A stretch of 64,000 nt of DNA from Paracoccaceae bacterium (GTDB lineage: Bacteria > Pseudomonadota > Alphaproteobacteria > Rhodobacterales > Rhodobacteraceae). The stretch covers positions 40,339-104,338 of the forward strand of contig JAIXZY010000077.1 in NCBI GenBank assembly GCA_027489355.1, in the 5' to 3' direction. The translations under genes were made by a program, and so were the position numbers. Below the pieces are notes generated by a model. That model saw only the letters and a list, made by a program, of their open reading frames with translations, did no database searches and was not told the DNA's origin. Below, piece after piece: positions 6,785 through 33,587 of the stretch (position 1 is its first letter; every line of letters starts with the position of its first letter).

Positions 6785-6827
6785 GGGGTCGCCTTTCCTC
6801 TGGCGGTGGGTCTGGATTTCGGGCGCT

Positions 6828-6865
6828 GCCCCCTCACCCTGGCCCTCTCCCCCGAGGGGAGAGGG
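6828..6865. repeat. REP-like palindrome, family A, copy 1
   Basis: GCCCCCTCACCCTGG-CCCTCTCCCC-CGA-GGGGAGAGGG; near-identical copy at 41508-41544. Confidence 0.85.
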
Positions 6866-6960
6866 AAGTGCCCGGTCGCAGCGTCAGTCAGCAAGGGAAG
6901 CGGGGCGCGGGGCATGGGGTGGACTCTTGTTCGGGCGTCGCGAGTGGAGATGGCGGGGTG

Positions 6961-7000
6961 CCCACCTCCCCATCCCTCCCCCACGGTGGCGGGAGGGAGG
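6961..7000. repeat. REP-like palindrome, family A variant
   Basis: CCCACCTCCCCA-TCCCTCCC-CCACGGTGGC-GGGAGGGA-GG; same leader-plus-hairpin layout as 6828-6865. Confidence 0.6.
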
Positions 7001-7047
7001 TTCTTGGGCGCAGCGTCGATCCCGGTTTGGGGGTGCTGCGCGTGTCG

Positions 7048-8793
7048 TCAGTGGCTTTCGCGGGCCACCGCATTGCCGCGGCAGCCGACGAGGAAGTCCA
7101 TGTCCGCGCCCTTGTCGGCGCCCTGGACATGGTCGTGGTAAAGCTTCGCATAGCCCGAGCCCGGCGGTTCGACGGCGGGTTTCCAGGCGGCGAGGCGGGC
7201 TTTCAACTCCTCGTCCGGGATGTCGAGGTGGATGCGGCGGTTGGCGACGTCCAGTTCGATGAAATCACCGGAGCGGACCACGGCCAGGGGGCCACCGCGC
7301 GCGGCCTCGGGGCTGGTGTGCAGTACCACCGTGCCATAGGCGGTGCCGGACATGCGGGCGTCCGAGATGCGGACCATGTCGGTGATGCCCTTGCGCAGGA
7401 CCTTGGGCGGGAGGCCCATGTTGCCGACCTCGGCCATCCCCGGGTAGCCACGCGGGCCGCAGTTCTTCAGGACCATGACGCAGGACTCATCAATATCCAG
7501 CGCCTCGTCGTTGATCCGGGCCTTGTAGTCATCGATGTCCTCGAACACCACCGCGCGGCCCCGGTGCTGCATCAGGTGGGGGCTGGCGGCCGAGGGTTTC
7601 AGGACCGCGCCGTCGGGGGCGAGGTTGCCCCTGACCACCACGATCCCGCCCGATTGGGTCAGGGCCTTCTCGGTGGGCAGGATCACGTCGTCGTTGTGCG
7701 ACTTGACGTCCTTGACCTCATCCCAGATCGCGCCGCCCGAGACGGTGAGGGCGTCCTTGTTCAGAAGCCCCGCCTCGCCCAGGCGCTTGATCACGGCGGG
7801 GATGCCGCCGGCGTAGAAGAACTCCTCCATCAGGTATTTGCCCGACGGCATCAGGTTGACGATCGTCGGCACGTCCTTGCCCCAGGCGTCCCAGTCGTTG
7901 AGCGTGAGGTCGATGCCACAGCGGCCCGCGATGGCGAGGAGGTGGATCACCGCGTTGGTCGACCCGCCGATGGCGGCGTTGGTGCGGATCGCGTTCTGGA
8001 AGGCCTCACGGGTGAGGATGTCGGAGGGTTTCAGGTCGTCCTTGACCATCTGCACGATGCGGCGCCCGGTCAGGTGCGCCATGACGCGGCGGCGGCTGTC
8101 GACGGCGGGGATCGCGGCGTTGCCGGAGAGGGTCATGCCCAGCGCCTCGGCCATCGAGGCCATCGTGGACGCCGTGCCCATCGTGTTGCAGGAACCGGGG
8201 GAGCGGGACATCGAGGCCTCGGCCTCGACGAATTCCTCGGCGGTCATTTCACCGGCCTTCACGGCTTCGGAGAACTTCCAGAGGTGGGTGCCCGAGCCGA
8301 CGCGTTCGCCCTTGTAGTAGCCGTTCAGCATCGGGCCGCCCGAGACCATGATCGTGGGCAGGTCGACCGAGGCTGCGCCCATCAGGAGCGAGGGCGTGGT
8401 CTTGTCGCAGCCGACGATGCAGACGACGCCGTCCATCTGCTGGCCGCGGATGGTTTCCTCGACCGCCATTGCGGCGAGGTTGCGGAACATCATCGCGGTG
8501 GGACGAAAGCCGGATTCGGAAACGGAGAAGACGGGGACGATGACGGGGAAGCCGCCCGCCTCATACACGCCGTGCTTGACGCGTTCGGCCAGGTCGCGGG
8601 AATGGGCGTTGCAGGGGTTGAGTTCGGAGAAGGTGTCGAGGATGCCGATCACCGGGCGTCCGTCGAAGAGGTCGGCGGGGAGGCCCTGGTTCTTCATCCA
8701 GGAGCGGTGGTAGATCGCGTCCTTCGAAGTACCGGCGAACCATTCCTGGCTGCGAAGCTTGCGGGGCCAGGGGGCGGGTTTGAACTTGGTCAT
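7048..8793 (-). CDS. IlvD/Edd-family sugar-acid dehydratase, L-arabinonate dehydratase type
   Basis: SELNPCNAH, GCDKTTP, GSCNTMGTASTM, GGSTNAVIHL, PGMAEVGNM, ISDARMSGT. Confidence 0.9.
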   Translation of the reverse strand: MTKFKPAPWPRKLRSQEWFAGTSKDAIYHRSWMKNQGLPADLFDGRPVIGILDTFSELNPCNAHSRDLAERVKHGVYEAGGFPVIVPVFSVSESGFRPTAMMFRNLAAMAVEETIRGQQMDGVVCIVGCDKTTPSLLMGAASVDLPTIMVSGGPMLNGYYKGERVGSGTHLWKFSEAVKAGEMTAEEFVEAEASMSRSPGSCNTMGTASTMASMAEALGMTLSGNAAIPAVDSRRRVMAHLTGRRIVQMVKDDLKPSDILTREAFQNAIRTNAAIGGSTNAVIHLLAIAGRCGIDLTLNDWDAWGKDVPTIVNLMPSGKYLMEEFFYAGGIPAVIKRLGEAGLLNKDALTVSGGAIWDEVKDVKSHNDDVILPTEKALTQSGGIVVVRGNLAPDGAVLKPSAASPHLMQHRGRAVVFEDIDDYKARINDEALDIDESCVMVLKNCGPRGYPGMAEVGNMGLPPKVLRKGITDMVRISDARMSGTAYGTVVLHTSPEAARGGPLAVVRSGDFIELDVANRRIHLDIPDEELKARLAAWKPAVEPPGSGYAKLYHDHVQGADKGADMDFLVGCRGNAVARESH

Positions 8794-8803
8794 GGCTGGC
8801 CTC

Positions 8804-9784
8804 TTACAGCTGGTGAACGCGGGTTGCGCCCTTTTCCTTCGGCGCGAAGGTCAGGGTGTTGCGGAGGGGTTGGCCGAAGTCGGCCACCTCGATCTCGAAT
8901 GTGTCGCCGGCTTGGGTCTTGATGCCGTCGGCGAAGGAGAGCGTGGCGGTGCCGAAGTAGTGGACATGCAGGTCGCCGGGCTGGCGGAAGATGGAATACT
9001 TGAAGTGGTGGTGTTCCAGGTTCGCCAGCGTGTGGGACATGTTGGCCTCGCCACTCAGGAACGGTTTCTCCCAAACGGTCTTGCCGTCGCGGAGGATGCG
9101 GCTGGTTCCGCGCACGTCGGACGGAAGGTCTCCGACAAGGATTTCCGGGCCGAAGGAGGCGACGCGGAGTTTGGAATGGGCGAGCCAGAGGTAGTTCACC
9201 CGTTCCGTCACATGGTCGGAGAATTCGTTGCCCAAGGCCCAGCCGATGCGGTGCGGGGCGCCGGTGGGGCCGATGAGGTAGATCCCTGCGATTTCGGGTT
9301 CCTCGCCGCCATCCTCAGCAAAGCCGGGGGCTTCGAGGGCGGCACCGGGCGCGACGGCGGCGTAGCCGTTGCCCTTGTAGAACCATTCGGGCTGGGCCCC
9401 GACCTCGCCTTGGGCGGGGCGGCCGCCTTCCAGGCCCATGCGGAACATCTTCATGCTGTCCGTCAGGTTCTCCGCGCCTTCCAGCTTGGCATGCATCGCA
9501 TCTCGTGCCGAGGCCGAGCCAAGGTGAGTGAGGCCAGTGCCGGTGAGGTGCAGGTGCGCGGGGTCGGGGTGGCTGACGGGCAGGTCGAAGGCCGCCCGGG
9601 TCAGGTCGACGGTCTCGCCCAAGCCGCGGCGGTCGATCTCGGCGGCGAGACCGTGCCCGGCCTTGATCGCCTGCGATGCCAGTTCGTAGACCGAGGGTGT
9701 GTTGCGGATCGCGCGGGCCTCGGTGCCTTGGCGGAGGACGGGGCCGATGCCCTTGACGGTGGACAGGTGCATGGCGAGTCTCAC
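8804..9784 (-). CDS. gguC: GguC/AraD1-family FAH-superfamily protein
   Basis: LTGTGLTHLGSA, QPEWFYKGNG, GEEPEIAG, GNEFSDHVTERVNYLWLAHSKLR; directly after mmsB. Confidence 0.82.
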   Translation of the reverse strand: MRLAMHLSTVKGIGPVLRQGTEARAIRNTPSVYELASQAIKAGHGLAAEIDRRGLGETVDLTRAAFDLPVSHPDPAHLHLTGTGLTHLGSASARDAMHAKLEGAENLTDSMKMFRMGLEGGRPAQGEVGAQPEWFYKGNGYAAVAPGAALEAPGFAEDGGEEPEIAGIYLIGPTGAPHRIGWALGNEFSDHVTERVNYLWLAHSKLRVASFGPEILVGDLPSDVRGTSRILRDGKTVWEKPFLSGEANMSHTLANLEHHHFKYSIFRQPGDLHVHYFGTATLSFADGIKTQAGDTFEIEVADFGQPLRNTLTFAPKEKGATRVHQL

Positions 9785-10950
9785 TTGTTCTTGTTGTAGA
9801 CGTCGAAGATGACGGCGGCCAGAAGGACCAGGCCCTTGATCATCTGCTGGTAGTCGATGCCGATCCCCAGGATCGACATGCCCATGTTCATCACGCCCAT
9901 GATCAGCGCGCCGATGACGACGCCGATGATCTTGCCCGAGCCTCCGGCCATCGAGGCCCCGCCGATGAACACGGCGGCGATGGCGTCGAGTTCAAAACCG
10001 GTGCCGGCCTTGGGGGTGGCGGAGTTGAGGCGGGCGGTGACCATCATGCCGGCCAGCGCGGCAAGGACACCCATGTTGACGAAGCAGAAGAACACCAGCC
10101 GGTCGGCGCGGATGCCCGACAGGAGCGAGGCCTTGTAGTTGCCGCCGACGGCATAGATCCGGCGGCCCTGGACGGTGTTTTCGGTAAAGAAGGCGTAGAG
10201 GATGATCAGAACGGCGAGGACGACCAGCACGTTGGGCAGGCCCCGGAAGCTGGCAAGCTGCCAGCCGACAAAGGCCATGGCGGCGGCGATGATGATGGTG
10301 CGGCCCCAGAAAAGGCCGGTGGGTTCGGGGGTGATCCCGAACTCGGCGTCGCGGGAGCGGGCGCGGAGGCCAATCCAGATCACGACGGCAATGGCGATGG
10401 CGGTGACGATCAGGGTCAAGCCGTGCGGTTTGCCGATGCCGGTGAGGTCGGGGATGAAGCCCGAGGACATGGCCTGGAAGGCCTTGGGGAAGGGGCCGAT
10501 GTTCTGGCCACCGAGCAGCCAGAGGGTCGCGCCGCGGAAGACGAGCATCCCGGCGAGGGTCACGATGAAGGAGGGGATGCGCCAGTAGGCGACCCAGTAG
10601 CCCTGGGCGGCTCCGATCAGGCCGCCGACGATCAGGGTCAGGGGGATGACGGCGTAGATGGGGAGGTCGAGGTCGACGGTCAGGTAGGCGGCGACGGCCC
10701 CGGTGAAGGCCGCGACGGAGCCCACCGACAGGTCGATGTGCCCGGCGACGATGATCAGAAGCATCCCGAGCGCGAGGATGATGACGTGGCCGTTCTGCAG
10801 GAAGATGTTGGTGATGTTCGGGGCCTGCAGGAACATCGGTTTGCCCTGCAGGAACACCAACAGGGAAAACAGCGCCACGATGGCGACCAGCGCCAGGAGC
10901 ATGCCGTTTTCGCGGAGGTGTCCGCCCAAGGAACTTTGCTTGTCAGCCAT
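9781..10950 (-). CDS. mmsB: Multiple monosaccharide ABC transporter permease
   Basis: GHIDLSVGSV, IPSFIVTLAGMLVFRG, ARLNSATPKAGTGFELDAIAAVFIGG. Confidence 0.9.
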   Translation of the reverse strand: MADKQSSLGGHLRENGMLLALVAIVALFSLLVFLQGKPMFLQAPNITNIFLQNGHVIILALGMLLIIVAGHIDLSVGSVAAFTGAVAAYLTVDLDLPIYAVIPLTLIVGGLIGAAQGYWVAYWRIPSFIVTLAGMLVFRGATLWLLGGQNIGPFPKAFQAMSSGFIPDLTGIGKPHGLTLIVTAIAIAVVIWIGLRARSRDAEFGITPEPTGLFWGRTIIIAAAMAFVGWQLASFRGLPNVLVVLAVLIILYAFFTENTVQGRRIYAVGGNYKASLLSGIRADRLVFFCFVNMGVLAALAGMMVTARLNSATPKAGTGFELDAIAAVFIGGASMAGGSGKIIGVVIGALIMGVMNMGMSILGIGIDYQQMIKGLVLLAAVIFDVYNKNK

Positions 10951-12492
10951 TCACGCCACCTTCCCTGTGGTCTTGCCGTTGTCTTTCACGATGAGCGCCA
11001 TGATCCGTTCCTGGCTGGCTTCCGCGCGCGAAAGCTCACCCACGATCCGGCCTTCGTTCATCACGTAGATGCGGTCGCACATGCCGAGGAGTTCCGGCAT
11101 TTCGGACGAGATCATCAGGACGCCCCGGCCCTGTTCGGCGAGGTCTTTCATGATCGTGTAGATCTCGAACTTCGCGCCCACGTCGATGCCGCGGGTGGGT
11201 TCGTCGAGGATGAGCAATTCGGGATCAGTGAAAAGCCATTTCGACAGGACGACCTTCTGCTGGTTTCCGCCCGAAAGGTTCACCACCTTCTGCTGCACGC
11301 CGGGGGTGCGGATCGCAAGTTGCTTGCGGTAGCCCTCGGCCACCTGCGCCTCGCGCCGTTTGTCGAGGATGGAGTTCTTCGCGATGCCGAAGAGGTTCGC
11401 GAGGGAGATGTTCTTCAGAATCGGCTCTTCCAGGATCAAGCCCAGCGCCTTGCGGTCCTCGGTCACGTAGGAGATGCCGGCCTGGATGGCCTTGGTCACG
11501 GTGGAAACGTCGACGGGTTTCCCGTGCATCCTCACCGTGCCCTGGTGGCCCTTGCCGTAGCTGCGGCCAAAGAGCGACATGGCGAGTTCCGTGCGGCCGG
11601 TTCCCATCAGACCCGCGATGCCGACTATCTCGCCTTTGCGGACGTTGAGGGAGACGCCCTTGATCATCTGCCGACCCGCCTGTTCGGGGTGCATGCAGGA
11701 CCAGTTTTCCACCTCGAACAGGACTTCGCCCGGGTTGGGCGTGCGTTCGGGGTAGCGGTGGGCGATGTCGCGGCCGACCATGTCGCGGATGATGCGATCC
11801 TCGCTGATCTCGGACTTCGAAAGGGTCGAGACCGAGGTGCCGTCGCGGATCACGGTGATCCGGTCAGCGACGCGGGAGATTTCGTTCAGCTTGTGGCTGA
11901 TGATGATCTGGGTGACGCCTTGCGACTTGAGTTCAAGCATCAGGTCCAGCAGGCGGTCGGCGTCGGCTTCCTGCAGGGCGGCGGTGGGTTCGTCGAGGAT
12001 CAGGAGGCGGACATTCTTCGACAGGGCCTTCGCGATCTCGATCAATTGCTGCTTGCCGACGCCCAGCTTGCCGACGACGGCGCTGGGGGGTTCGTTCAAC
12101 CCGACGCGGCGGAGAAGATCACCCGTCTTCTGCATGGCAAGGGGCCAGGAGATGACGCCATTGGTCGCGACCTCGTTGCCCATGAACAGATTCTCGGCGA
12201 TCGACAGCAGCGGGATCAGCGCGAGTTCCTGGTGGATGATGATGATGCCCTTGGCTTCGGAATCGCGGATCGAGCGGTTCTGCAGGGGCTGGCCGTCGTA
12301 GATGATTTCGCCGTCATAGGACCCATGCGGGTAGACGCCGGACAAGACCTTCATCAGCGTGGACTTGCCCGCGCCGTTTTCGCCGCAGATGGCGTGGATT
12401 TCCCCGGCCTCGACCGTCAGGCTGACCCGGTCCAATGCCTTGACGCCCGGGAAGACCTTGGTGATCCCGCGCATTTCCAGAAGTGTCGACAT
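10951..12492 (-). CDS. mmsA: Multiple monosaccharide ABC transporter ATP-binding protein
   Basis: [56 protein letters not shown]. Confidence 0.9.
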
Positions 12493-12510
12493 GTCCCCTC
12501 CCCAAAGAGA

Positions 12511-12541
12511 ACCTGCCCGCGCGGGAGCGGCGCGGGCAGGT
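12511..12541. terminator. 12-bp stem-loop between chvE and mmsA
   Basis: ACCTGCCCGCGC-GGGAGCG-GCGCGGGCAGGT. Confidence 0.6.
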
Positions 12542-12554
12542 CCTTCGGATCAGC

Positions 12555-13625
12555 TTACTTCAGCTGGTCCGCGGTGTAGTAGCCCGAACCGACGAGGATC
12601 TCTTCGTAGTTCGAGACGTTCACCGAGACGGGTTCCAGAAGGTAGGACGGAACCACCTTGACGCCGTTGTTGTAGGTTTCGGTGTCGTTGATTTCCGGCT
12701 CGCCGCCCGCAAGGACCGCGTCCACCATCTTGACGGTGACCTTGGCCAGTTCGCGGGTGTCCTTGAAGATGGTCGAGTACTGCTCGCCCGCGATCATCGA
12801 CTTGACCGAGGGGATCTCGGCGTCCTGGCCGGTGACGATCGGCATCTTCAGGTCGCCCGAGCCATAGCCCACGCCCTTCAGCGACGACAGGATGCCGATG
12901 GACAGCCCGTCATAGGGGGACAGCGCGCCGTGCAGCTGCTTGTCGCCGTAGTTCGAGGACAGGAGGTTGTCCATCCGGGCCTGCGCCACGGCGCCGTCCC
13001 AACGAAGGGTGCCGACCACGTCCATGCCCGTCTGGCCCGACGGGATGACGATGTCGCCCGCGTCGATCAGCGGCTGCAGCACCGACATCGCGCCGTCGTA
13101 GAAGAAGAAGGCGTTGTTGTCGTCGGGCGAGCCGCCGAAAAGCTCGACGTTCCACGGCTTCACGTCGGGGAAGCGTTCCTTCAGGCCCGCGACAAGGCTT
13201 TCGGCCTGCTGCACGCCGACCTTGAAGTTGTCGAAGGTGGCGTAATAGTCGACCGAGCCGCTTTCGCGGATCAGGCGGTCATAGGCGATGACCTTGATGC
13301 CCTGGGCAGCGGCGTTGTCCAGCGCGTTCGACAGGGTGGTGCCGTCGATGGCCGCGATCACCAGCGCCTTGACGCCCGAGGTGATCATGTTCTCGATCTG
13401 GCTGAGCTGGGTCGGGATGTCATCCTCGGCATATTGCAGGTCAGCGGCATAGCCGGCCTCCTGGAACGCCTTGACCATCGACTCGCCGTCCGAGATCCAG
13501 CGCGACGAGGATTTGGTCGGCATCGCGATGCCGATGGTGCCCTTGTCCTGGGCGAACAGCGGCATGGCAGAGAGCGCAGCGGTGGCGCCGGTCAGGGCCA
13601 TCAGGCCGCGGCGGGTCAAGATCAT
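12555..13625 (-). CDS. chvE: Multiple monosaccharide-binding periplasmic protein
   Basis: [58 protein letters not shown]. Confidence 0.92.
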
Positions 13626-13766
13626 CTTGTTTCCTCCCGATGATTCTTAGTGTGCATCCGCTTTGGGCGCGCGCTTGCGGGCCATGCCTACGGACGCGGC
13701 GGAGATTGCGCGGGGGAGACATGTCTGTCAAATAGGGTTTATGCGGTTGAATATGGCCGAAATGAT

Positions 13767-14693
13767 ATGAGTATGGTTGAAGCGGGGCTGGTGGCCCAGG
13801 TGCGGCGACTGAAGCCGGTGCAGTTGCGGCTGTTGGCGGAGCTGGATCACGCGGGCGCGCTGGGGGTGGCAGCGGCTCGGATCGGGGTGGCGCAGCCGGC
13901 GGCCTCGCGGTTGCTCGCCGAGATGGAGGCGCTGCTGGGACTGCCGCTGCACGAGCGGCACGGTCGGGGATTGCAGCTGACCGCCGTGGGCCGGGCCCTG
14001 GCGCGGCGGGCGGCGCGGATCGAGATCGAGCTGGCGGATGCGGCGCGGGAATTGGCCGAGGCGGCGACGGGTCGCGCGGGCGTGGTGCGCGTGGGGGCGG
14101 TCACGGGGCCGGCGCTAAGTCTTGTGTTGCCCTCGCTGACCGCCTTGCAGCGCGAGTTGCCGGAGTTCCGGGCGGAGGTGACGGTCGGGACCTCAGTCAC
14201 GCTGTGCGACCAGTTGCGTGAGGGGCGGCTGGACTTTGCTCTGGCGCGGTTAAGTCCGGGGGAGACCCAGCTGGAGGCGCGGATGATCGCGGGGGAGCCG
14301 TTGTCACTGGTGGTGCGACGCGGGCATCCGCTGCTGGTGCGGCCGATTGTGTCGGTGGATGACCTTCTGGCCTATGACTGGGTGATGGGCGACGACGAGA
14401 CCCTTTTGACGCAGACGGTGGTGGCTCGGCTGGCGGAACTGGGGATGGGGTTGCCGAGGCGGAGGATCTCGACGTCTTCGTTCCTGTTCACGCTGGCGCT
14501 GCTGAACCAGACCGACGCCATCGCCCCCCTGGCGACCCCAGTGGTGGACAGTTTTGCGGGCAATCCCTCGGTGCCCTTCGTATCGCTGCCGATCGACCTT
14601 GGTCTGGCGGTCGCGCCGTTCAGCCTGGTCACGCGGGCCGGGGCGCAGATGACGCCCTCGGCCCAGAGGTTGATCGACGCGATGCTGGCTTAG
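13767..14693 (+). CDS. LysR-family regulator divergent from chvE, GbpR-like
   Basis: LysR HTH (AAARIGVAQPAASRLL, LHERHGRGLQLT); divergent chvE arrangement as known for gbpR; start chosen at MSMVEAG. Confidence 0.82.
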   Translation: MSMVEAGLVAQVRRLKPVQLRLLAELDHAGALGVAAARIGVAQPAASRLLAEMEALLGLPLHERHGRGLQLTAVGRALARRAARIEIELADAARELAEAATGRAGVVRVGAVTGPALSLVLPSLTALQRELPEFRAEVTVGTSVTLCDQLREGRLDFALARLSPGETQLEARMIAGEPLSLVVRRGHPLLVRPIVSVDDLLAYDWVMGDDETLLTQTVVARLAELGMGLPRRRISTSSFLFTLALLNQTDAIAPLATPVVDSFAGNPSVPFVSLPIDLGLAVAPFSLVTRAGAQMTPSAQRLIDAMLA

Positions 14694-15487
14694 GCGTTGC
14701 GCTCCAGCCAGTCGGCGAATTGGCTGACCACGCCGGGGTCGCAATCGACCAGGTGCTGCGGGGCGGGGTAGTCGCCTTCGTGGACGTCCTTGGCAAAGCG
14801 CGACATCGCGTCGACGCGGAGCGCCTGAAGCCGGTCATACTCGATCGCGAAGTCGGCATAGACCTTGGCATGGCGGGGGACCTTGCCGCGGTTCTGGCCG
14901 AGAACGTCGTCGGAGAACAGGTACTGCGCGTGACCGCCTGCGCCGGCTCCCATCGAGATCAGGAAGAGGTTGGTCTTTTCGGCGATCAGGCGAGTGATCG
15001 AATGCGGGACGACTTCGATTTCGACCGCAAAGGCCCCGGCGTCCTCCAGCGCCTTGCACTGGTTCCAGACAAGCTGCGCGGTCTCCAGCGTCTTGCCCAC
15101 GGCCTTGAACCCGCCGGTCCAGGTGCGTTTCGAGGGGATCAGGCCGACATGGCCGCAGACGGGGAGGCCGTGGTCGGCCATTGCCTTCACGGTGGCGAGC
15201 GAGCCGGAGCAGTAGAAAGCATCCGCGCCGTGTTTGAACAGCGGGAAGGCCCAGCGCAGGAAATCCTCCGTGCCGCCAATTTCATAGAAGTTGTCGCCGG
15301 GGAAGACGAAGGCATCCGGTGCGATCTCGCGGAAGCGGCGGTCCATCACCATTGCGGGCGGGACCGAGAGAAGCTCGACCCCGGCTTGCGCGGCGGCCTC
15401 GGCTTCCTCCAGCGTTTCCACCCGCAGCATGGCGAACTGGTGCTTGCCGCGGGCGTCGAGCAGGTCCTTTACGGTGGGGGGTGCCAT
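14690..15487 (-). CDS. Divergent PanB (ketopantoate hydroxymethyltransferase)-like protein
   Basis: PVCGHVGLIP, GGFKAVGK, LEDAGAFAVEIEVVP, ISMGAGAG, DVLG, HAKVY resemble PanB; the N-terminal VGDS motif is absent; start overlaps the upstream stop. Confidence 0.78.
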   Translation of the reverse strand: MAPPTVKDLLDARGKHQFAMLRVETLEEAEAAAQAGVELLSVPPAMVMDRRFREIAPDAFVFPGDNFYEIGGTEDFLRWAFPLFKHGADAFYCSGSLATVKAMADHGLPVCGHVGLIPSKRTWTGGFKAVGKTLETAQLVWNQCKALEDAGAFAVEIEVVPHSITRLIAEKTNLFLISMGAGAGGHAQYLFSDDVLGQNRGKVPRHAKVYADFAIEYDRLQALRVDAMSRFAKDVHEGDYPAPQHLVDCDPGVVSQFADWLERNA

Positions 15488-15798
15488 CACGCGACCTCGA
15501 CGAAGACCCGGTCGCCTTCGACCTTCACGGGGAAGGTCTTCAGGTTCACGCAGACCGGGGCGCGCATCGCCTCGCCCGTCCTGTAATCGAACTGGCCGTT
15601 GTGCTTGGGACATTCGATCAGGTTGCCCATCACGAGACCGTCGCAGAGGTGGATGTTTTCATGCGTGCAAAGACCGGCGGTGGCGAAGAATTCACCGTCC
15701 GGCGAATGGTAGATGGCAAAGGTCTTGCCGGCGTGATCCCAGCGGATCAGGTCTTCTTCGTCGATGTCAGAGGTCGAGCAGGCGTCAATCCAGGGCAT
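15487..15798 (-). CDS. mocE: MocE-family Rieske 2Fe-2S ferredoxin
   Basis: CTHENIHL and CPKHNGQFD Rieske motifs; 103 aa. Confidence 0.85.
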   Translation of the reverse strand: MPWIDACSTSDIDEEDLIRWDHAGKTFAIYHSPDGEFFATAGLCTHENIHLCDGLVMGNLIECPKHNGQFDYRTGEAMRAPVCVNLKTFPVKVEGDRVFVEVA

Positions 15799-15807
15799 GG
15801 TCGGTCC

Positions 15808-16899
15808 TTATTCTGCGGCGGCTGGGGGCATCATGCCCGGCACGTAGTGGTGGAAGTCCTCGCGGTAGGGCTTTGCGGTGGGCGGCAGGTCGCGCTTGAT
15901 GAAGTAGTCCTCGTTCATCACCTGGCGCTTGATGGCAGGCCACATCTCGGCGAACGCCTGCGCGATGGAGGTGTTCGGCGGAGGGAGGTCGTCCTTGATG
16001 ACCTCATGCAGCCGGGGCAGGGCATGGTAGGGAACCATCGGGAACATGTGGTGTTCGACGTGGTAGTTCATATTCCAATAGATGAAGCGGCTGATCGGGT
16101 TCATATAGACCGTGCGGCTGTTCAGCCGGTGGTCGATGACGTTGTCCGCCAGGCCGCCGTGCTGAAGCAGGCCGGTCATCACATGGTGCCAGGCGCCGTA
16201 CATCCGGGGCAGGCCGACCACCATCAGCGGCAGGATCGACCCCATCCAGACCGCAAGGGCGATGGTCGCCAGGTAGATCGACAGGTGTACGATGGCCACC
16301 TTCTGAACCTTGCCCCATTCGCTTTCAGGGACGAAAGTCTTCTCGGCAGCCGTCGGGCCGAAGAGGGCGTTCTGGACCAGGTTCGGGAAGAACTTGATGA
16401 CGTCGAGGATGCCGAAGAAGTTCAGGATCAGCTTCGCCACTTCCGGCGGGCGCATCACCGCGATTTCCGGGTCGCGGCCGACGAAGTAGGTCTCGGAGTG
16501 GTGGCGCGCATGGCTCCAGCGCCAGGTGGCCGAATTACGCATGATCATGAAGCTGGCGATCTGGTAGACCCAGTTGTTCATCCACGGCGTCTTGAAGGCG
16601 GTGCCGTGGCTGCATTCATGCCAGCGCGAATCCGAGGCCGAGCCGTAAAGGACTCCGTATGCCAGCCAGAACGGAGCTGACCACCACGACGGCCAGAGCG
16701 CGATGCCGATACCCGCGAACAGGACCATGCTGCCGTACAGGATGATGGTGTCGCGGATCGCGGGCTGGTCGCTGCGCGCCATCAGGTCCTTCATCACCTT
16801 GCGGGGGACCTCGGTATGGTACCACTCCGCCGCAGTCAGTCCGCTTTCGACGGCACGCTTGGCGTCTGGGCCGAAAAGACTGTAGTCCCGCTTGCTCAT
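15808..16899 (-). CDS. mocD: MocD-like membrane di-iron (fatty-acid-desaturase-fold) oxygenase
   Basis: Three His boxes WHECSHG, WSHARHH, YHVEHH; N-terminal RDYSL...AEWYH; GAGGAG RBS before MSKRDY. Confidence 0.82.
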   Translation of the reverse strand: MSKRDYSLFGPDAKRAVESGLTAAEWYHTEVPRKVMKDLMARSDQPAIRDTIILYGSMVLFAGIGIALWPSWWSAPFWLAYGVLYGSASDSRWHECSHGTAFKTPWMNNWVYQIASFMIMRNSATWRWSHARHHSETYFVGRDPEIAVMRPPEVAKLILNFFGILDVIKFFPNLVQNALFGPTAAEKTFVPESEWGKVQKVAIVHLSIYLATIALAVWMGSILPLMVVGLPRMYGAWHHVMTGLLQHGGLADNVIDHRLNSRTVYMNPISRFIYWNMNYHVEHHMFPMVPYHALPRLHEVIKDDLPPPNTSIAQAFAEMWPAIKRQVMNEDYFIKRDLPPTAKPYREDFHHYVPGMMPPAAAE

Positions 16900-16996
16900 C
16901 CCGTGACCTCCTCTGTGGCGTTCCCCGGCCGGGATCGCGTCCTTGGGTCGTGGATAAGTCGGGGTCAGGCCGATCGCCAATAGCCGGGCTTGCAGG

Positions 16997-17051: not shown

Positions 17052-18083
17052 ATGGCAAATCGCCCCACGATCCACGACGTCGCCCGCGAAGCCGGGGTGT
17101 CCAGCGCCACGGTGGACCGGGTTCTGAACGGGCGCGAGAAGGTGCGCGAGGAAACGGCGCGCAAGGTTTATGAGGCCGCGCGGCTGATCGGCTACCATGC
17201 GGCACCGCTGATCGGGCAGCGGGTCCACGCCGATCTGCCCCGCCTCCGGCTGGGGCTGGTTCTGCACAAGGAACGCCAGTCCTTCTACCAACAGTTCAAA
17301 GCCGAGGCGGAACGGGCGGTCACACAGGCGGTCGGGGTGCGGGCCTCGTTGCAGGTGGCTTTCGCGTCGTCGCAATCTCCGAAGGATTTCACCGAGCTCA
17401 TGGAAGGCATGGCAGGCCGGGTCGATGCGATCGCTGCCACCGCCGTCACCCATCCCGAGGTGACGGAGGCGGTGATCCGGCTAAACAGCAAGGGCATTCC
17501 CTGCTTTTCCCTGCTCAATGACTTCGGGCAGGGGGTGCGGCAGAATTACCTGGGTCTCAATAACTTGAAGGTCGGGCGGATCGCGGCGCACATGATCGCG
17601 ACGGCCTCGCATCATGCGGGGAAGATCGCGGTCTTTGTCGGCGGCTACCGCTGGCACGGGCACGAACTGCGCGAGACGGGGGTGCGCAGCTACTTCCGCG
17701 AACACGCGCCGCAGTTCCAGGTGCTTGACACGCTGATCAACCTGGAGACCCGGCAGCTGACCTATGAGGCGACGCTGGACCTTCTGTCCCGTCACCCGGA
17801 CCTGCGCGGGATTTATTGCGCGGGCGGTGGGATGGAGGGGGCCATCGCGGCGGTGCGCGAGGCGCGGGCTCCGGGCGAAGTTGCGCTGGTAGTGAACGAG
17901 CTGACGCCAGAAAGCCGGGCGGCGCTGATCGGGCGGCACGTGACGATGGTGATCGGGACGCCGCTTCAGCGGCTTTGCGACGATCTGGTCAGGCTGGCGA
18001 CCGAGGCGGTGACCGATGGCATGGCCCCGGTCCAGGGCCAGCACTTCCTGGCGCCGGACCTCTACCTGCCCGAGAGCGTCTGA
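17052..18083 (+). CDS. LacI-family transcriptional regulator (atypical hinge)
   Basis: PTIHDVAREAGVSSATVDRVLN HTH followed by a periplasmic-binding-like domain. Confidence 0.9.
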   Translation: MANRPTIHDVAREAGVSSATVDRVLNGREKVREETARKVYEAARLIGYHAAPLIGQRVHADLPRLRLGLVLHKERQSFYQQFKAEAERAVTQAVGVRASLQVAFASSQSPKDFTELMEGMAGRVDAIAATAVTHPEVTEAVIRLNSKGIPCFSLLNDFGQGVRQNYLGLNNLKVGRIAAHMIATASHHAGKIAVFVGGYRWHGHELRETGVRSYFREHAPQFQVLDTLINLETRQLTYEATLDLLSRHPDLRGIYCAGGGMEGAIAAVREARAPGEVALVVNELTPESRAALIGRHVTMVIGTPLQRLCDDLVRLATEAVTDGMAPVQGQHFLAPDLYLPESV

Positions 18084-18132
18084 CGAAAAACAATCACCAT
18101 TCTGACCGTCAATTCGTCAGGAATGATGGGAT
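18081..18132. promoter_or_regulatory. Candidate operator repeats upstream of the TIM-barrel gene
   Basis: TGACGAA (18081) / TTCGTCA (18113) inverted pair; TGATGGGAT at 18124, also found at 17031. Confidence 0.45.
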
Positions 18133-18212
18133 CGCCCCGCGGCGGATTGACGCGACGGGAGAGTCTCGGGGATGGTCCGGCCAACCAAATTGCCGCGGTT
18201 GGGAGGCCGGGA

Positions 18213-19019
18213 ATGATCCACTTCGCATTGAACCACATGACGGTGGCCCGGCTTTCGTTCCGCGATCTGGTCGCCCTGGCGAAGCAGCTGGGCTGCGTGG
18301 GGATCGAGGTCCGCAACGACCTGCCGCAACCCTTGTTCGACGGGATGGACCCGGCCGAGGGCGGGGCTTTTGTCCGGGACAACGGGCTGCGCCTTCTTGC
18401 GGTGGCCGAGGTCAAGCGGTTCAACGACTGGTCCTCGGACAAGGAGGCGGAGGCGCTGGCGCTGATGAAGATCGCCCACGCCGCCGGGGCCGAGGCCGTC
18501 AGCCTGATCCCGCGCAACGACAACCTTGGCATGGGCAACGGCGAGCGGCAGGCGAACCTGCGCGTCGCGCTGAAGGCGCTGAAGCCGATGCTGGAAGATC
18601 ACGGGCTGGTCGGCATGGTGGAGCCGCTGGGCTTCGAGATCTGCGCGCTGCGCTACAAGTCCGAGGCCGTGGAAGGCATCGAAGCCGTAGGCGGCACGGG
18701 CCGGTTCAAGCTGGTCCATGACACCTTCCACCACACGCTGGCCCACGGCGGGCCGCTGTTTCCGGAGCATACCGGAATCGTTCATATCTCGGGCGTTGTG
18801 GACCAGGAGGTCGGGATCAACGACATGCGCGATCCGCACCGGGTTCTGGTGACCCGGGGCGACCGGCTGGGCAATGTCGAGCAGATCGCCGCGTTGCAGG
18901 CGGCGGGCTGGAACGGGCCGGTCAGCTTCGAGGCCTTCTCGCCCGAAGTTCACCTGCTGACCGATCCCGCCTCGGCGCTGCGGGCCAGCATGGACTACAT
19001 GGCGCGGGTTCCGGCGTGA
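18213..19019 (+). CDS. Xylose-isomerase-like TIM barrel protein (IolI/inosose-isomerase-like)
   Basis: FALNHM, GIEVRNDL, MVEPLGF, HDTFHH, VHISGV, DPHRVLV, SFEAFS metal-binding pattern. Confidence 0.7.
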   Translation: MIHFALNHMTVARLSFRDLVALAKQLGCVGIEVRNDLPQPLFDGMDPAEGGAFVRDNGLRLLAVAEVKRFNDWSSDKEAEALALMKIAHAAGAEAVSLIPRNDNLGMGNGERQANLRVALKALKPMLEDHGLVGMVEPLGFEICALRYKSEAVEGIEAVGGTGRFKLVHDTFHHTLAHGGPLFPEHTGIVHISGVVDQEVGINDMRDPHRVLVTRGDRLGNVEQIAALQAAGWNGPVSFEAFSPEVHLLTDPASALRASMDYMARVPA

Positions 19020-19176: not shown

Positions 19177-20118
19177 ATGAAGAAGATCCTTATCGTTGCA
19201 GGCTTCGCCTCGCTGATGAGCACGACCGCGATGGCGGAAGGCATCGGCGTGTCGATGGCGCTGTTCGACGACAACTTCCTGACGGTGCTGCGCAATGGCA
19301 TTCAGAAACAGGCCGACGAGCAGGGCCTGAAGGTGCAGATCGAGGACGCGCAAAACGACGTGGCCAAGCAGCTGGACCAGATCAACAACTTCATCGCCTC
19401 GGGCGTGGATGCGATCATCGTGAACCCGGTCGATACCTCGGCCACCCAGGCGATGTCGGATGCGGCCGCCGCCGCGAACATCCCGCTGGTCTATGTGAAC
19501 CGTCAGCCGATCAACGTCGACACCCTGCCCGACAACCAGGCTTTCGTCGCGTCGAACGAAGCGGAATCCGGCACGCTGGAAACCATCCAGCTCTGCGACA
19601 ACTGGGCGGCCGAGGGCAAGACCGAGGTCAACGTCTACGTGATGCAGGGCGAATTGTCGAACCAGGCCGCCGTCCAGCGCACCCAGGACATCTATGACGT
19701 GATCGAGGCCGGCAAGTGCAAGGTCAAGATCAACGTGATCGACCAGCAGACCGCAAACTGGTCGCGCGATCAGGCCCAGACCCTGATGACCAACTGGCTA
19801 TCGACCGGCACCGCCTTCGACGGCGTGATCGCCAACAACGACGAGATGGCGATCGGCGCATTCCAGGCGATGAAGGCCGCGAACATCGACATGAAGACCG
19901 TGCAGGTCGGCGGCGTCGACGCGACCCAGGACGCCTTGGCCGCGATGCAGGCGGGCGACCTGGACGTGACCGTGTTCCAGAACGCCGCGGCCCAGGGCGG
20001 CGGCGCGCTGGAAGCGGCCGTGAAGCTGTCGAAGGGCGAAGCGGTGGACCAGAAGGTCTATGTCCCGTTCGAGCTGGTGACGCCCGAAAACATCGCGAAC
20101 TACCTCGCGAAGAACTAA
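19177..20118 (+). CDS. Sugar ABC substrate-binding protein, RbsB/inositol-binding type
   Basis: GVSMALFDDNFLTVLRNG, EDAQNDVAKQLDQINNF, VYVNRQP, ANNDEMAIGA, GGVDAT. Confidence 0.88.
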   Translation: MKKILIVAGFASLMSTTAMAEGIGVSMALFDDNFLTVLRNGIQKQADEQGLKVQIEDAQNDVAKQLDQINNFIASGVDAIIVNPVDTSATQAMSDAAAAANIPLVYVNRQPINVDTLPDNQAFVASNEAESGTLETIQLCDNWAAEGKTEVNVYVMQGELSNQAAVQRTQDIYDVIEAGKCKVKINVIDQQTANWSRDQAQTLMTNWLSTGTAFDGVIANNDEMAIGAFQAMKAANIDMKTVQVGGVDATQDALAAMQAGDLDVTVFQNAAAQGGGALEAAVKLSKGEAVDQKVYVPFELVTPENIANYLAKN

Positions 20119-20228: not shown

Positions 20229-21341
20229 GTGGCAGAAGCAACGCATGGCCTTGGCGGCTTGAAGTACGACCCGGCCAAGCGCACCCGCGCGCCGGAGTGG
20301 AACGTGTTCGCCGCGCTGGTGCTGATCGTCCTGATCTTCGAGATCCTGAACCGCATGCAGGGGGGCTCGTTCCTATTCAACATGCGCGACAACGTGGACG
20401 GGCTGTTCAACCAGCAGCGGCTGGACATCATGATCCTGCAGGTCGCCATCGTGGGGATCATCGCCCTGGGGGTCACGCAGGTGATCATCATCGGCGGGAT
20501 CGACCTGTCGTCGGGATCGGTGGTGGGGGCCACCGCGATGGTGGTGATGAGCTTTGCCCAGACCGCCACGGTCAATGGCAATCCGAACCCCAAGGCGATC
20601 TTCGGCGACTGGGCGATGGACCTACCGGTGATCGTTCCAATTGCGATAGGATTGGCCTGCGGGCTTTTCGCGGGCCTCGTCAACGGGTTGCTGGTCGCCT
20701 ACACCAAGATCCCGCCCTTCATCGCCACGCTGGGCATGATGGTTTCCGCCCGTGGCGCCGCGCGCTGGTGGTCGAACGGCCAGCCGGTCAGCTTTCCGAC
20801 GGAGACTTTCGGCACCCTGTCGAACGGCGACCTCCTCGGGACGCTGACCTTCGGCCTGTTGCACTGGCCGGGGCAGAACCCCGCCGTGGTCTTCGTGGTG
20901 TTGGCGATCCTGTTCCACGTGATCATGAGCTATACGCTGTACGGCAAGCGGTCCTATGCCATCGGCTCAAACGAGGCGGCGGCGCGGATGTCGGGGATCA
21001 ACGTCGACCGCCATAAGGTGCTGGTCTACGCCATCGCCGGGGTGCTGGCGGCCGTGGCGGCGGTGCTTCTGACCTCGAAGAACCTTACCGCGCAGGCCGG
21101 CATGGGGGTGATGTACGAGTTGGACGCCATCGCCATGGCGGTGATCGGCGGGATAAGCCTGGCGGGGGGTCGCGGGTCGATCCTGGGGACGGTGCTGGGC
21201 GCGATGATCTTTTCGGTGATCATCTCGGGCTTCACCTCGATCAAGCTGGACGCCTACTACCAGGAGATGGTGAAGGGCGCGATCATCGTGGGCGCCGTGG
21301 TGCTGGACCAGTGGCGGCAACGCAAGCGGGCGCGGGGGTAA
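20229..21341 (+). CDS. Sugar ABC transporter permease
   Basis: GGIDLSSGSVV, IPPFIATLGMM, IGSNEAAARMSGINV, YELDAIAMAVIGG. Confidence 0.9.
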   Translation: MAEATHGLGGLKYDPAKRTRAPEWNVFAALVLIVLIFEILNRMQGGSFLFNMRDNVDGLFNQQRLDIMILQVAIVGIIALGVTQVIIIGGIDLSSGSVVGATAMVVMSFAQTATVNGNPNPKAIFGDWAMDLPVIVPIAIGLACGLFAGLVNGLLVAYTKIPPFIATLGMMVSARGAARWWSNGQPVSFPTETFGTLSNGDLLGTLTFGLLHWPGQNPAVVFVVLAILFHVIMSYTLYGKRSYAIGSNEAAARMSGINVDRHKVLVYAIAGVLAAVAAVLLTSKNLTAQAGMGVMYELDAIAMAVIGGISLAGGRGSILGTVLGAMIFSVIISGFTSIKLDAYYQEMVKGAIIVGAVVLDQWRQRKRARG

Positions 21342-21346
21342 GGGCC

Positions 21347-22114
21347 ATGTCGAAGATCATCCTGGAAACCCGCGGCCTGACCAAGCATTACGGCGGCGTG
21401 CATGCGCTGGAAGACGCGAACTTCATCCTGCACGAGGGCGAGCATGTCGCCGTCGTGGGGGACAACGGGGCGGGGAAGTCCACCTTCGTGCGCCAGGTGA
21501 CGGCGGTGGAACAGAGGACGGGCGGCGAGGTCATCTTCGACGGTCAGCCGGTGAGCTTCTCCGGCCCGTTGGAGGCGCGGCAGGCCGGGATCGAGACCGT
21601 GTTCCAGACGCTGGCGCTGGCCGACGACCTGGACGTGCCGTCGAACCTGTTCCTGGGGCGTGAGCTCTTCAAGTTCAAGCTGGGCCCGTTCTCCTGGCTG
21701 GACCGCAAGACGATGCGGGACCGGACGATGGAGGCCTTGAAGACGACGGCGGTGAAGATCCCCAATGTCGACAACCCGATCCGCAACATGTCGGGCGGGC
21801 AGCGGCAATGCGTCTCGATCGCGCGGACGGCGGCCTTTGCCTCGAAGCTGGTCATCATGGACGAACCCACGGCGGCGCTGGGGGTGCAGGAGACGGCTCA
21901 GGTGGAAAACATCATCCGGGGACTGAAGGACCGGGGCATCCCGATGATCCTGATCAGCCACAACTTGCGGCAGGTCTTCGATCTGGTGGACCGGATCGTC
22001 GTGTTCCGTAGGGGCCGCATCGTCGCCTCCTTGCGGAAGGACGAGACGGACGGCAATGACATCGTGAGCTACATCACCGGCGTGAAGGGCGGCAGCGACG
22101 CCGCCTACGCCTAG
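21347..22114 (+). CDS. Sugar ABC transporter ATP-binding protein (single domain)
   Basis: GDNGAGKST, MSGGQRQ, DEPTAALG, LISHN. Confidence 0.9.
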   Translation: MSKIILETRGLTKHYGGVHALEDANFILHEGEHVAVVGDNGAGKSTFVRQVTAVEQRTGGEVIFDGQPVSFSGPLEARQAGIETVFQTLALADDLDVPSNLFLGRELFKFKLGPFSWLDRKTMRDRTMEALKTTAVKIPNVDNPIRNMSGGQRQCVSIARTAAFASKLVIMDEPTAALGVQETAQVENIIRGLKDRGIPMILISHNLRQVFDLVDRIVVFRRGRIVASLRKDETDGNDIVSYITGVKGGSDAAYA

Positions 22115-22153
22115 GGTTTGAAAGCCGGGCCACGCCCGGGACAAGGAGAGACC

Positions 22154-23155
22154 ATGACGATCAGGTTCGGACTTCTGGGTGCGGGGCGCATCGGGAAGGT
22201 TCATGCGAAGGCGGTGACGGGCAACCCCGCCGCGAAACTGGTGGCGGTAAGCGATGCGATGCCGGCGGCGGCGCAGGCGATTGCCGACCAGTATGGCTGC
22301 GACGTCCGTTCGATTGATGCCATCGCGGCGGCGAAGGACATCGACGCTGTGGTGATCTGCACGCCGACGGACACCCATGCCGACCTGATCGAGCAGTTCG
22401 TGAAGGCCGGGAAGGCCGTGTTCTGCGAAAAGCCCATCGACCTGTCGCTGGCCCGCGTAAAGCAGTGCCTGGAGGTCGTCCGCGCCCACAACGGCACGCT
22501 GATGGTCGGCTTCAACCGCCGCTTCGACCCGCATTTCCAGGCGGTGCGGGGCGAGATCGACAAGGGGACCATCGGGGACGTGGAGATGGTGACGATCACG
22601 AGCCGCGACCCTGGCGCGCCTCCGCTGGATTACATCGCGCGGTCTGGCGGGATCTTCCGGGACATGACGATCCATGATTTCGACATGGCGCGGTTCCTGT
22701 TGGGCGAGGAAGTGTCCGAGGTTTCGGCGATGGCGGCTGTTCTGGTGGACCCGGCGATCGGGAAGGCCGGGGACAGCGACTCGGTCCAGGTCATGCTGAA
22801 GACGGCGTCGGGGAAGATGGCGGTGATCTCGAACTCGCGCCGGGCGACCTATGGCTATGATCAGCGGATCGAGGTGCACGGATCGAAGGGCGTGGCTTCG
22901 GCCGAGAACCAGCGGCCGGTCAGCATCGAGGTGGCGACGGGGGCGGGCTACACCCGGCCGCCGCTGCATGACTTTTTCATGACCCGCTATACCGAGGCCT
23001 ATGCGGCCGAGATCGCGGCCTTCATTGATGCGATGGCCGGCAAGGCGAAAGCTTCGCCCTCGGGGGAGGATGGGCTGCTGGCCCTGGCCCTGGCCGAGGC
23101 GGCGCTGAAGTCGGTCGCGGAAGGTCGGGTCGTGAAGATGAGTGAGGTTCTCTGA
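22154..23155 (+). CDS. iolG: Inositol 2-dehydrogenase
   Basis: GAGRIG, CEKPIDL, GFNRRFDP, ITSRDP, DMTIHDFDMAR, NSRRATYGYDQRIEV; AAGGAG RBS. Confidence 0.9.
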   Translation: MTIRFGLLGAGRIGKVHAKAVTGNPAAKLVAVSDAMPAAAQAIADQYGCDVRSIDAIAAAKDIDAVVICTPTDTHADLIEQFVKAGKAVFCEKPIDLSLARVKQCLEVVRAHNGTLMVGFNRRFDPHFQAVRGEIDKGTIGDVEMVTITSRDPGAPPLDYIARSGGIFRDMTIHDFDMARFLLGEEVSEVSAMAAVLVDPAIGKAGDSDSVQVMLKTASGKMAVISNSRRATYGYDQRIEVHGSKGVASAENQRPVSIEVATGAGYTRPPLHDFFMTRYTEAYAAEIAAFIDAMAGKAKASPSGEDGLLALALAEAALKSVAEGRVVKMSEVL

Positions 23156-30282: not shown

Positions 30283-30285
30283 GGA

Positions 30286-32160: not shown

Positions 32161-32789
32161 CAAGCACTGTCGAACCGACGATTCCCGGTCTTGATGTTTC
32201 ACGTGAAACAATCCAGGCTTTGGAACGCTATGAAGCGCTTGTCCGGCGCTGGACTCCGGCAATCAATCTCGTCGCCAAGAGCACAGTTCCTGCAATCTGG
32301 CCACGTCACATCCTAGATTCCGCCCAGCTGTTCGCACTTGCTCCTGCGACTTGCCTCAGGTGGGCCGACTTGGGCTCAGGCGGGGGCTTTCCGGGCGTTG
32401 TCGTTGCTGTGTTGGCGAAGGAACTTCGACCCGCGATGCATGTAACACTTGTGGAATCGGATCTGCGCAAAGCAACTTTCCTGCGCGAAGCTGTCCGGGA
32501 GCTTGAGTTGCCCGCTTCGGTAATCAGCGAGCGGATCGAATCGCTAACACCGCTTCATGCGGACGTGCTTTCTGCGCGCGCTTTGGCATCCCTGTCGGAT
32601 CTTCTGGGTTTTGCCGAACGGCACCTCACACAAGACGGAGTGTGCCTGTTTCCGAAGGGCGAACGGTTCGCCGACGAAATTAACGATGCACGGATTGCCT
32701 GGGATTTCGACATTGACGTGCAGCCAAGTCTGTCGGATGGCAAAGCCGCAATACTTGTGATCAGGAACATTCATCGTGTCCAGAACTGA
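32157..32789 (+). CDS. rsmG: 16S rRNA m7G527 methyltransferase RsmG (GidB)
   Basis: [36 protein letters not shown]. Confidence 0.95.
32195..32210. promoter_or_regulatory. Perfect parS site inside rsmG
   Basis: TGTTTCACGTGAAACA, read as DVSRET in the protein. Confidence 0.92.
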
Positions 32790-33585: not shown

Positions 33586-33587
33586 GC

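Follow-up and report, generated by a model that had tools for sequence, protein, structure and literature searches.

A PanB-like protein that has lost the canonical metal site, encoded with a MocD/MocE-type oxygenase and probably linked to oxidative demethylation

The 64,000-nucleotide stretch of contig JAIXZY010000077.1 analysed here (the window; Paracoccaceae bacterium, assembly GCA_027489355.1) carries an intact open reading frame (ORF) at 14690-15487 on the minus strand, which encodes a 265-residue relative of ketopantoate hydroxymethyltransferase, PanB. This PanB-like protein is not a ketopantoate hydroxymethyltransferase. Given that the residues that handle Mg2+ and the keto acid in PanB are lost, and that the gene holds a conserved last place in an operon for an oxygenase, at a locus for inositol uptake, its job is probably linked to oxidative demethylation and not to vitamin synthesis. 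The protein belongs to an old, monophyletic branch of the PanB family that occurs, in the genomes sampled, in Alphaproteobacteria only.

The PanB-like protein and its active site

The structure predicted by AlphaFold2 from a 27-sequence alignment of the family is a (beta/alpha)8 barrel (pLDDT 88.4, pTM 0.80), in which the sole stretch of low confidence, residues 118-130, is the sequence-invariant loop PS..TWTGGFKA, the counterpart of the PanB lid loop. Foldseek comparison of this model with the Protein Data Bank (PDB) ranks the PanB structures 1oy0, 3vav and 1m3u first (TM 0.66-0.73, 24-27% identity), followed by methylisocitrate lyase, dimethylmalate lyase, petal death protein and other members of the ICL/PEPM group, so that the structure prediction called for in a preliminary description of this DNA returns a PanB fold. 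No solved relative closer than PanB was found by sequence or Foldseek comparison with the PDB, and relative to canonical PanB the protein has an extra helix at the C-terminus. The Pfam model PF02548 matches residues 74-242 alone (profile positions 93-258 of 259), at 120 bits against a gathering score of 28.7 bits, whereas both NCBIfam PanB models, TIGR00222 and NF001452, are missed (86.8 bits against a cut-off of 207.55 and 108 against 272) and their alignments cover only the C-terminal ~150 residues.

In the PanB of E. coli, Asp45 and Asp84 are the Mg2+ ligands, Glu114 binds water and Lys112 binds the carboxylate, while Glu181 and His136 act as general acid/base. HMMER alignment of the PanB-like protein to the E. 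coli structure 1m3u places FYCSGS over VKIEGG, with Tyr92 at the position of Lys112, Ser94 at that of Glu114 and Glu158 at that of Glu181. Comparison by hhalign of the 27-sequence family alignment with nine canonical alphaproteobacterial PanBs (probability 99.9%, E 2.7e-36) returns the same residues for Lys112 and Glu114, places Pro44 at Asp45 and Gly64 at Asp84, and identifies a 17+2-residue deletion (~19 residues) immediately past the Asp45 position, after strand 2. These key mappings rest on the 1m3u alignment and on the canonical PanB of the same genome, and are independent of one further alignment that includes the N-terminal part of E. coli PanB. The alignments agree with the preliminary description on the replacement of the Asp45 motif together with a deletion of about 20 residues, on the exchange of VKIEG for FYCSG, and on the retention of GHxGL (here GHVGL), of the Glu181-like glutamate and of a G-G loop (GxG). 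A possible equivalent of Asp84, which had been proposed there to lie in the motif PGDNF, did not survive: the residue that aligns is the neighbouring, near-invariant Gly64, and since the column of Asp65 varies across the family (D/L/M/E/V/K) there is no conserved equivalent of Asp84.

The same replacements run through the whole subfamily. Among 104 subfamily sequences there is no Asp in the Asp84 column (Gly in 98), no Lys in the Lys112 column (Tyr in 98) and no Glu in the Glu114 column (Ser in 47, Ala in 49), and the Asp45 column holds Pro in 82 and Asp in two; Glu158 and His113, the counterparts of Glu181 and His136, are invariant in all 104. Strands 1-4, the half of the barrel that serves Mg2+ and the keto acid, are rebuilt (TAY to R-V-x, GDS to VPP, D to G, VKxEG to xYCxx), with new invariant polar residues of the family alignment standing in for the metal site, and the half formed by strands 5-8 is retained (GHVGL, the GG(F/Y)K lid, E..E.VP, GxG, Q...D and P..K.Y). 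The pattern is a trait of the whole family that is kept by selection, and reflects neither chance nor a sequencing error. Glu158, His113 and the lid loop are strictly conserved, which speaks for a site of ligand binding or catalysis and against a decayed protein. Set against PanB proper (EC 2.1.2.11; 1m3u, 1oy0, 3vav), the protein shares the fold, clear homology, both acid/base residues, the lid, GxG, Q...D and P..K.Y; it differs in the exchange of Asp45, Asp84, Lys112 and Glu114 for Pro, Gly, Tyr and Ser or Ala, in the ~19-residue deletion, in the added C-terminal helix and in having no link to panC.

All entries examined in the public annotations, from Rhizobium, Sinorhizobium, Mesorhizobium, Rhodobacter and Tabrizicola, name these proteins 3-methyl-2-oxobutanoate hydroxymethyltransferase, and the PF02548 match does exceed the gathering score, which raises the question of whether the protein could be a working or back-up pantothenate enzyme. 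This is barely credible, for four reasons. First, Asp45, Asp84, Lys112 and Glu114 are all replaced. Second, the cut-offs of both NCBIfam PanB models are missed. Third, the genome has a canonical panBC pair: of its five PF02548 genes one is a canonical panB (C7:163543-164418, 362 bits, GDSLGM and VKLEGG intact), which lies on the same contig as the window and overlaps panC by 4 nt (C7:163543-165448), and the other four are PanB-like paralogues, 39-46% identical to one another and all without the metal residues. The PanB-like gene of the window has no such linkage to panC and is preceded by mocE instead. Fourth, the 'second panB' of Rhizobium etli CFN42, RHE_PE00443 on plasmid p42e, has no detectable metal-binding domain and keeps five of 12 active-site residues, and an R. 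etli panB mutant is a pantothenate auxotroph despite its presence, with no rescue on constitutive expression or over-expression (PMC3082293, Villaseñor et al. 2011). RHE_PE00443 was equated with RHE_RS26335 (271 aa) through plasmid, length and annotation, it being the sole such gene in the part of p42e examined; this R. etli orthologue is 54% identical to the PanB-like protein over its full length, and its operon is the same as here, with a TIM barrel-LacI unit divergent from FA_desaturase-MocE-FAD reductase-PanB-like.

A back-up PanB was rejected on these grounds, and the annotation is almost certainly wrong. The preliminary description had held a pantothenate enzyme to be unlikely, had suggested a look for a canonical panB elsewhere and had named complementation of panB as the observation that would overturn its view; the canonical gene is present and paired with panC, complementation is effectively negative for the R. 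etli orthologue, and that expectation is borne out. Both the missing metal site and the inability to serve as PanB had been published for this orthologue by 2011 and are not new. The same paper makes no mention of an oxygenase operon and puts no function forward (PMC3082293), and no other functional study was found in the literature on mocD/mocE, pinitol demethylation, PanB paralogues and the S. meliloti locus. In the literature searched, neither recognition of the subfamily, nor its pairing with MocD/MocE, nor a functional proposal for the PanB-like gene was found.

The MocD/MocE operon and its recurrence

The PanB-like gene is the last of three genes on the minus strand, in the order mocD, mocE, PanB-like gene. 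The gap between mocD and mocE is 9 nt, and the TGA of mocE and the ATG of the PanB-like gene share one base (TGATG); by this arrangement the three genes are predicted to form a translationally coupled operon. It is divergent from six plus-strand genes, which run from that for a LacI regulator to that for an inositol 2-dehydrogenase. The features of the locus are as follows.

14690..15487, minus strand: PanB-like protein, 265 aa; predicted (beta/alpha)8 barrel of the PanB/ICL-PEPM fold
15487..15798, minus strand: 103-aa ferredoxin of the MocE family, Rieske [2Fe-2S] type (168 bits to TIGR02377, cut-off 136; Pfam Rieske)
15808..16980, minus strand: MocD-type membrane di-iron oxygenase of the FA_desaturase family, listed as 390 aa (PF00487, 131 bits; synteny)
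17052..18083, plus strand: LacI-family regulator (Pfam LacI and Peripla_BP_4; position conserved in related loci)
18123..19019, plus strand: xylose-isomerase-like TIM barrel (PF01261; best PDB matches 4hgx and 2q02)
19177..20118, plus strand: CUT2 periplasmic sugar/cyclitol-binding protein (~65% identity to the syntenic Ensifer protein)
20229..21341, plus strand: ABC transporter permease (ORF and synteny)
21311..22114, plus strand: ABC transporter ATPase (Walker motifs in the ORF; synteny)
22118..23155, plus strand: inositol 2-dehydrogenase, Gfo/Idh/MocA family (PDB 4hkt, 538 bits, E 5.5e-161)

The association seen in the window recurs widely. Of the best 80 related loci from species-representative genomes of Rhodobacterales and Rhizobiales, 72 have co-oriented genes for MocD and MocE immediately upstream of the PanB-like gene; the remainder comprise two loci with MocE only, one at a contig end and five without a MocD-MocE pair. 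A MocF-like FAD reductase gene lies between those for MocE and the PanB-like protein in 38 of the 72, mainly in Rhizobiales, and is absent from the other 34, mainly in Rhodobacterales. Within the genome studied here there are four MocE-family genes above the TIGR02377 cut-off (contigs C7, C33, C36 and C38, that at 15487-15798 among them), each of which lies no more than 3.3 kb from one of the four PanB-like paralogues. Each of the four paralogues lies in a sugar locus of the LacI/ABC-transporter kind and has as its neighbour a membrane di-iron oxygenase, which is of the FA_desaturase type in two cases and of the FA_hydroxylase ('sterol desaturase') type in the other two. Full-length members of the subfamily, which score at least 177 bits against a profile to which canonical PanBs reach at most 118, are carried by 18 of 301 sampled Alphaproteobacteria, in up to five copies, and the subfamily is present in 8 of the 9 genomes that have a MocE over the cut-off, as against 18/301 overall (Fisher p = 2.5e-10).

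A stoichiometric genetic coupling to MocE of this kind, taken with the loss of the canonical catalytic metal site and with the lack of a reductase in cis in the Rhodobacterales operons, could also be expected of a non-catalytic accessory subunit, whether a protein that docks or stabilises MocD/MocE or a ligand-binding regulator. Such a role is rather improbable, as Glu158 and His113, the GxG and Q...D motifs and the lid loop, which is mobile (PS..TWTGGFKAVGKT), are invariant across clades more than 1 substitution/site apart, which is typical of a working active site; furthermore, the protein has no redox-cofactor motifs and some members are encoded with no oxygenase nearby.

Loci elsewhere in the subfamily point to the oxygenase as the constant element. 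At 6822-11423 of one locus (L098, genome G039) a LysR gene is followed by a MocD-like-MocE-MocF-PanB-like operon and then by an OpuAC glycine-betaine-type binding protein, with no sugar genes, and this operon is possibly an N-demethylase version of the system. In small genomes of 1.4-1.6 Mb and 30-32% GC, the PanB-like gene lies in one case among two FA_desaturase-type oxygenases, one FA_hydroxylase-type oxygenase and sugar-acid genes (L102), and in another adjoins GH4 glycosidases and a PhyH dioxygenase (L104). A further locus, in a genome of 1.6 Mb and 31% GC, has tandem PanB-like genes, at 8843-9685 and 7995-8840, beside two PhyH dioxygenases (L103), which hints that the subfamily also partners soluble Fe/2-oxoglutarate oxygenases. 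From the L098, PhyH and GH4 contexts, the partner is an oxygenase and not inositol catabolism or a sugar pathway as such, and for the protein of the window, which the preliminary description had taken for a re-purposed aldolase or hydroxymethyl-transferring enzyme or else a non-catalytic binding protein, the gene context narrows the role to one tied to MocD/MocE-type oxygenases. Two PanB-type domains are carried by one library representative of 542 aa (P0123). Gene fusions were also considered as a clue to function and were set aside: a 624-aa open frame in G039 consists of separate, overlapping mocF and PanB-like genes, and the longer library representatives have no consistent partner, their ALAD, YkuD and DUF4349 portions looking like run-ons or chimeras.

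It is nevertheless conceivable that the protein acts downstream of the oxygenase, as a folate-independent enzyme on the cyclitol or sugar product, such as an isomerase, epimerase or enolising enzyme for inosose or a demethylated inositol, in which Glu158 and His113 together with the new residues Tyr92, Arg22, Arg53, Arg205 and His206 would replace Mg2+. PanB itself enolises next to a carbonyl, several paralogues adjoin genes for Gfo/Idh/MocA dehydrogenases and TIM-barrel isomerase-like proteins, and invariant polar residues have indeed arisen in place of the metal site. However, this is unlikely for three reasons: first, the gene tracks the oxygenase and ferredoxin and not the sugar genes, as judged by its coupling to mocE and its 1:1 pairing with MocE; second, the L098 operon stands beside a betaine-type binding protein with no sugar genes; third, the locus of the window already has an isomerase-like TIM barrel.

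With regard to the locus itself, the true start of MocD is probably not the listed one but the internal MSKRDY near 16899, downstream of it: MocD homologues begin near MSKRDYSLFG (~16899), which leaves a divergent promoter region of ~150 bp before lacI. No palindromic operator was found in the mocD-lacI intergenic region, and nothing informative emerged around the operon with respect to a shared LacI operator or to promoter and terminator signals. The Sinorhizobium meliloti genes SMb20711-20714 encode a putative inosose isomerase and a myo-inositol ABC transporter, whose binding protein SMb20712 has a Kd for myo-inositol of 0.47 uM (PMC3454389). In the window the TIM-barrel gene at 18123..19019 occupies the position of SMb20711, and the CUT2 binding-protein gene that of SMb20712, where the Ensifer protein is ~65% identical. 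On its other side, the PanB-like gene abuts a group of genes at 8804-14693 that comprises a chvE-like binding protein, gguA/gguB-like ABC genes, GguC/AraD1 (NF040903, 512 bits) and a convergent LysR. Loci of Shinella, Pararhizobium and Rhizobium (L068, L070, L078, L081, L082, L084) show this neighbourhood again, a sign that the genes may belong to a larger sugar island that is inherited together. Further along the window, the region 30282-34485 has no ORF with the high third-position GC of the genome, and between 32 and 34 kb GC falls to 0.59. Rfam gave no match over the whole window.

Evolution and spread of the subfamily

In a maximum-likelihood tree the subfamily forms one clade with an SH-aLRT of 100 on a stem of 2.66 substitutions/site, and both the canonical PanBs and an intermediate third group fall outside it. 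The four paralogues of this genome lie in different sub-clades and are therefore old paralogues or transfers, not recent duplicates. In a phylum-wide sample of 401 genomes there are 18 positives, all of them Alphaproteobacteria, and 243 of 1.84 billion representatives at 50% identity, many of them fragments, reach E <= 1e-30 against the family profile. The family is thus real and modest in size.

The third PanB-type group, found at five loci (L121-L125; genomes G281, G127, G104, G167 and G039), keeps GDSLAM, which holds Asp45, and Lys112, and has Cys at the Asp84 position, Gln at the Glu114 position and a C-terminal helix. Its members score 130-142 bits against the subfamily profile and are sister to the subfamily in the tree.

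A proposed role in one-carbon capture

Oxidative demethylation yields a hemiacetal and then formaldehyde. PanB handles carbon of this oxidation level on tetrahydrofolate (THF), its metal site serving only the enolate of the 2-oxo acid. Given that demethylation by MocDEF would yield carbon at this level, a transfer of this carbon to THF is favoured, and the loss of the Mg2+/enolate site fits such a capture, since no 2-oxo-acid carbanion would be needed. It is tentatively suggested from this context that the one-carbon half of PanB has been kept and passes formaldehyde-level carbon from oxidative demethylation to THF, and that the protein works together with the MocD oxygenase and the MocE ferredoxin, and in Rhizobiales also with MocF; mechanism and partners together make up the best explanation, albeit one held with less than even confidence. 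In such a scheme MocDE would hydroxylate a methyl group of the substrate, the PanB-like protein would take the resulting hemiacetal or the released formaldehyde, and the retained folate chemistry, run backwards and with Glu158 in the part of the acid/base, would give 5,10-methylene-THF, by which free formaldehyde would be avoided and the carbon saved. Folate binding, one-carbon capture and the identity of the substrate are points that we infer, and the description of the retained half as the folate half is an assumption.

The substrate is likely an O-methyl-inositol such as pinitol, because the operon diverges from one that encodes an inositol transporter, an isomerase-like protein and a dehydrogenase. 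In passages of two papers that cite Bahar et al. 1998, MocDEF is proposed to demethylate the rhizopine 3-O-methyl-scyllo-inosamine (PMC10107442, PMC5789663), and mocDEF homologues are induced by a root exudate whose main component is pinitol (PMC5789663).

Several points weigh against the proposed capture of one-carbon units on THF. Among the solved relatives no folate-bound structure of PanB was found. Hemiacetals break down, and formaldehyde and THF condense, spontaneously, so that an enzyme is not strictly required, and other oxidative O-demethylases, such as VanAB and those of the P450 type, work without a partner of this kind. The folate one-carbon genes folD and purU are not adjacent to the PanB-like gene. 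The paper on mocDEF of Pseudomonas syringae names only xylA2 downstream (PMC5132102). The metal site may have been relocated, to Glu156, Glu158, His113 and Asp194, and not lost. Outside the Alphaproteobacteria no genome of the phylum-wide 401 matched the subfamily, and in about half of 20 loci from diverse genomes no oxygenase was found by BLAST within 8 kb; the link to an oxygenase is strong for the clade of this protein and looser in the wider subfamily. On R. etli p42e, the region 460000-473203 (L126) carries folD and purU, along with a type III glutamine synthetase and soxBDAG, all genes of folate-linked one-carbon or methylamine type, at 16-29 kb from the Moc/PanB-like operon, a distance too great for linkage.

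A different use of the same one-carbon chemistry would be to run PanB in reverse on a C-C bond: a C-methyl group would be hydroxylated, an adjacent ketone made and the hydroxymethyl group passed to THF by retro-aldol cleavage, the outcome being a C-demethylation, for example of C-methyl-inositols. This would be a literal reversal of PanB chemistry, the FA_hydroxylase neighbours of some paralogues belong to a family related to sterol C-4 methyl oxidases, and dehydrogenases often adjoin. It is distinctly unlikely all the same, given that retro-aldol cleavage in this superfamily needs a metal-stabilised enolate, the site for which is gone; moreover, the best-known substrate of MocDEF is an O-methyl ether, and the betaine-type context suggests N- or O-methyl groups over C-methyl groups.

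The resemblance to the MocDEF rhizopine system extends to the MocD-type oxygenase, to a MocE ferredoxin over the curated cut-off, to the inositol transporter and dehydrogenase context and, in the Rhizobiales versions, to MocF-like reductases; the differences are a LacI-type regulator here and MocR there, and the lack of a MocF in cis in Rhodobacterales. No fourth, PanB-like gene is named in those parts of the published moc descriptions that were compared, the original clusters of S. meliloti L5-30 and R. leguminosarum 1a lying outside the comparison. Dimethylglycine oxidase and sarcosine oxidase trap one-carbon units by means of GcvT-like folate domains, and the formaldehyde-activating enzyme Fae does so on H4MPT. 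The likeness is one of analogy, in that all would trap formaldehyde-level carbon on a pterin carrier, hypothetically so for the PanB-like protein, and the folds are unrelated. We know of no PanB-fold protein that captures an oxidised methyl carbon on a pterin.

In a wider and still more tentative form of the proposal, the subfamily might supply metal-independent, THF-dependent partners that capture formaldehyde or hemiacetal for membrane di-iron demethylases, and perhaps for those of the PhyH type, and so turn methyl groups of O-methyl-inositols and of methylated sugars or amines into 5,10-methylene-THF. If true, the PanB scaffold would have given rise to a folate-based equivalent of the formaldehyde-activating enzyme, and an old fold would have gained a new activity, for which the protein is at present a candidate.

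The annotation of these proteins as pantothenate enzymes is widespread and can skew both predictions of the pantothenate pathway and metabolic models. As a case of enzyme evolution, the family offers a clean example of an active site of which one half has been rebuilt and the other kept. In Alphaproteobacteria MocDE(F) is almost always accompanied by the PanB-like protein, which is probably a component that has been missing from the Moc oxygenase system as described. MocDE(F) is used in the engineering of rhizopine signalling, and to our knowledge no one has reconstituted its chemistry; the lack of a fourth component could affect whether the Moc pathway works in other hosts. Capture of the methyl carbon on THF, if true, would explain how rhizosphere and aquatic bacteria escape formaldehyde stress when they use pinitol and other methyl ethers that are abundant in plants and algae; among these bacteria are some whose genomes are small and low in GC and hold as many as four copies of the gene.

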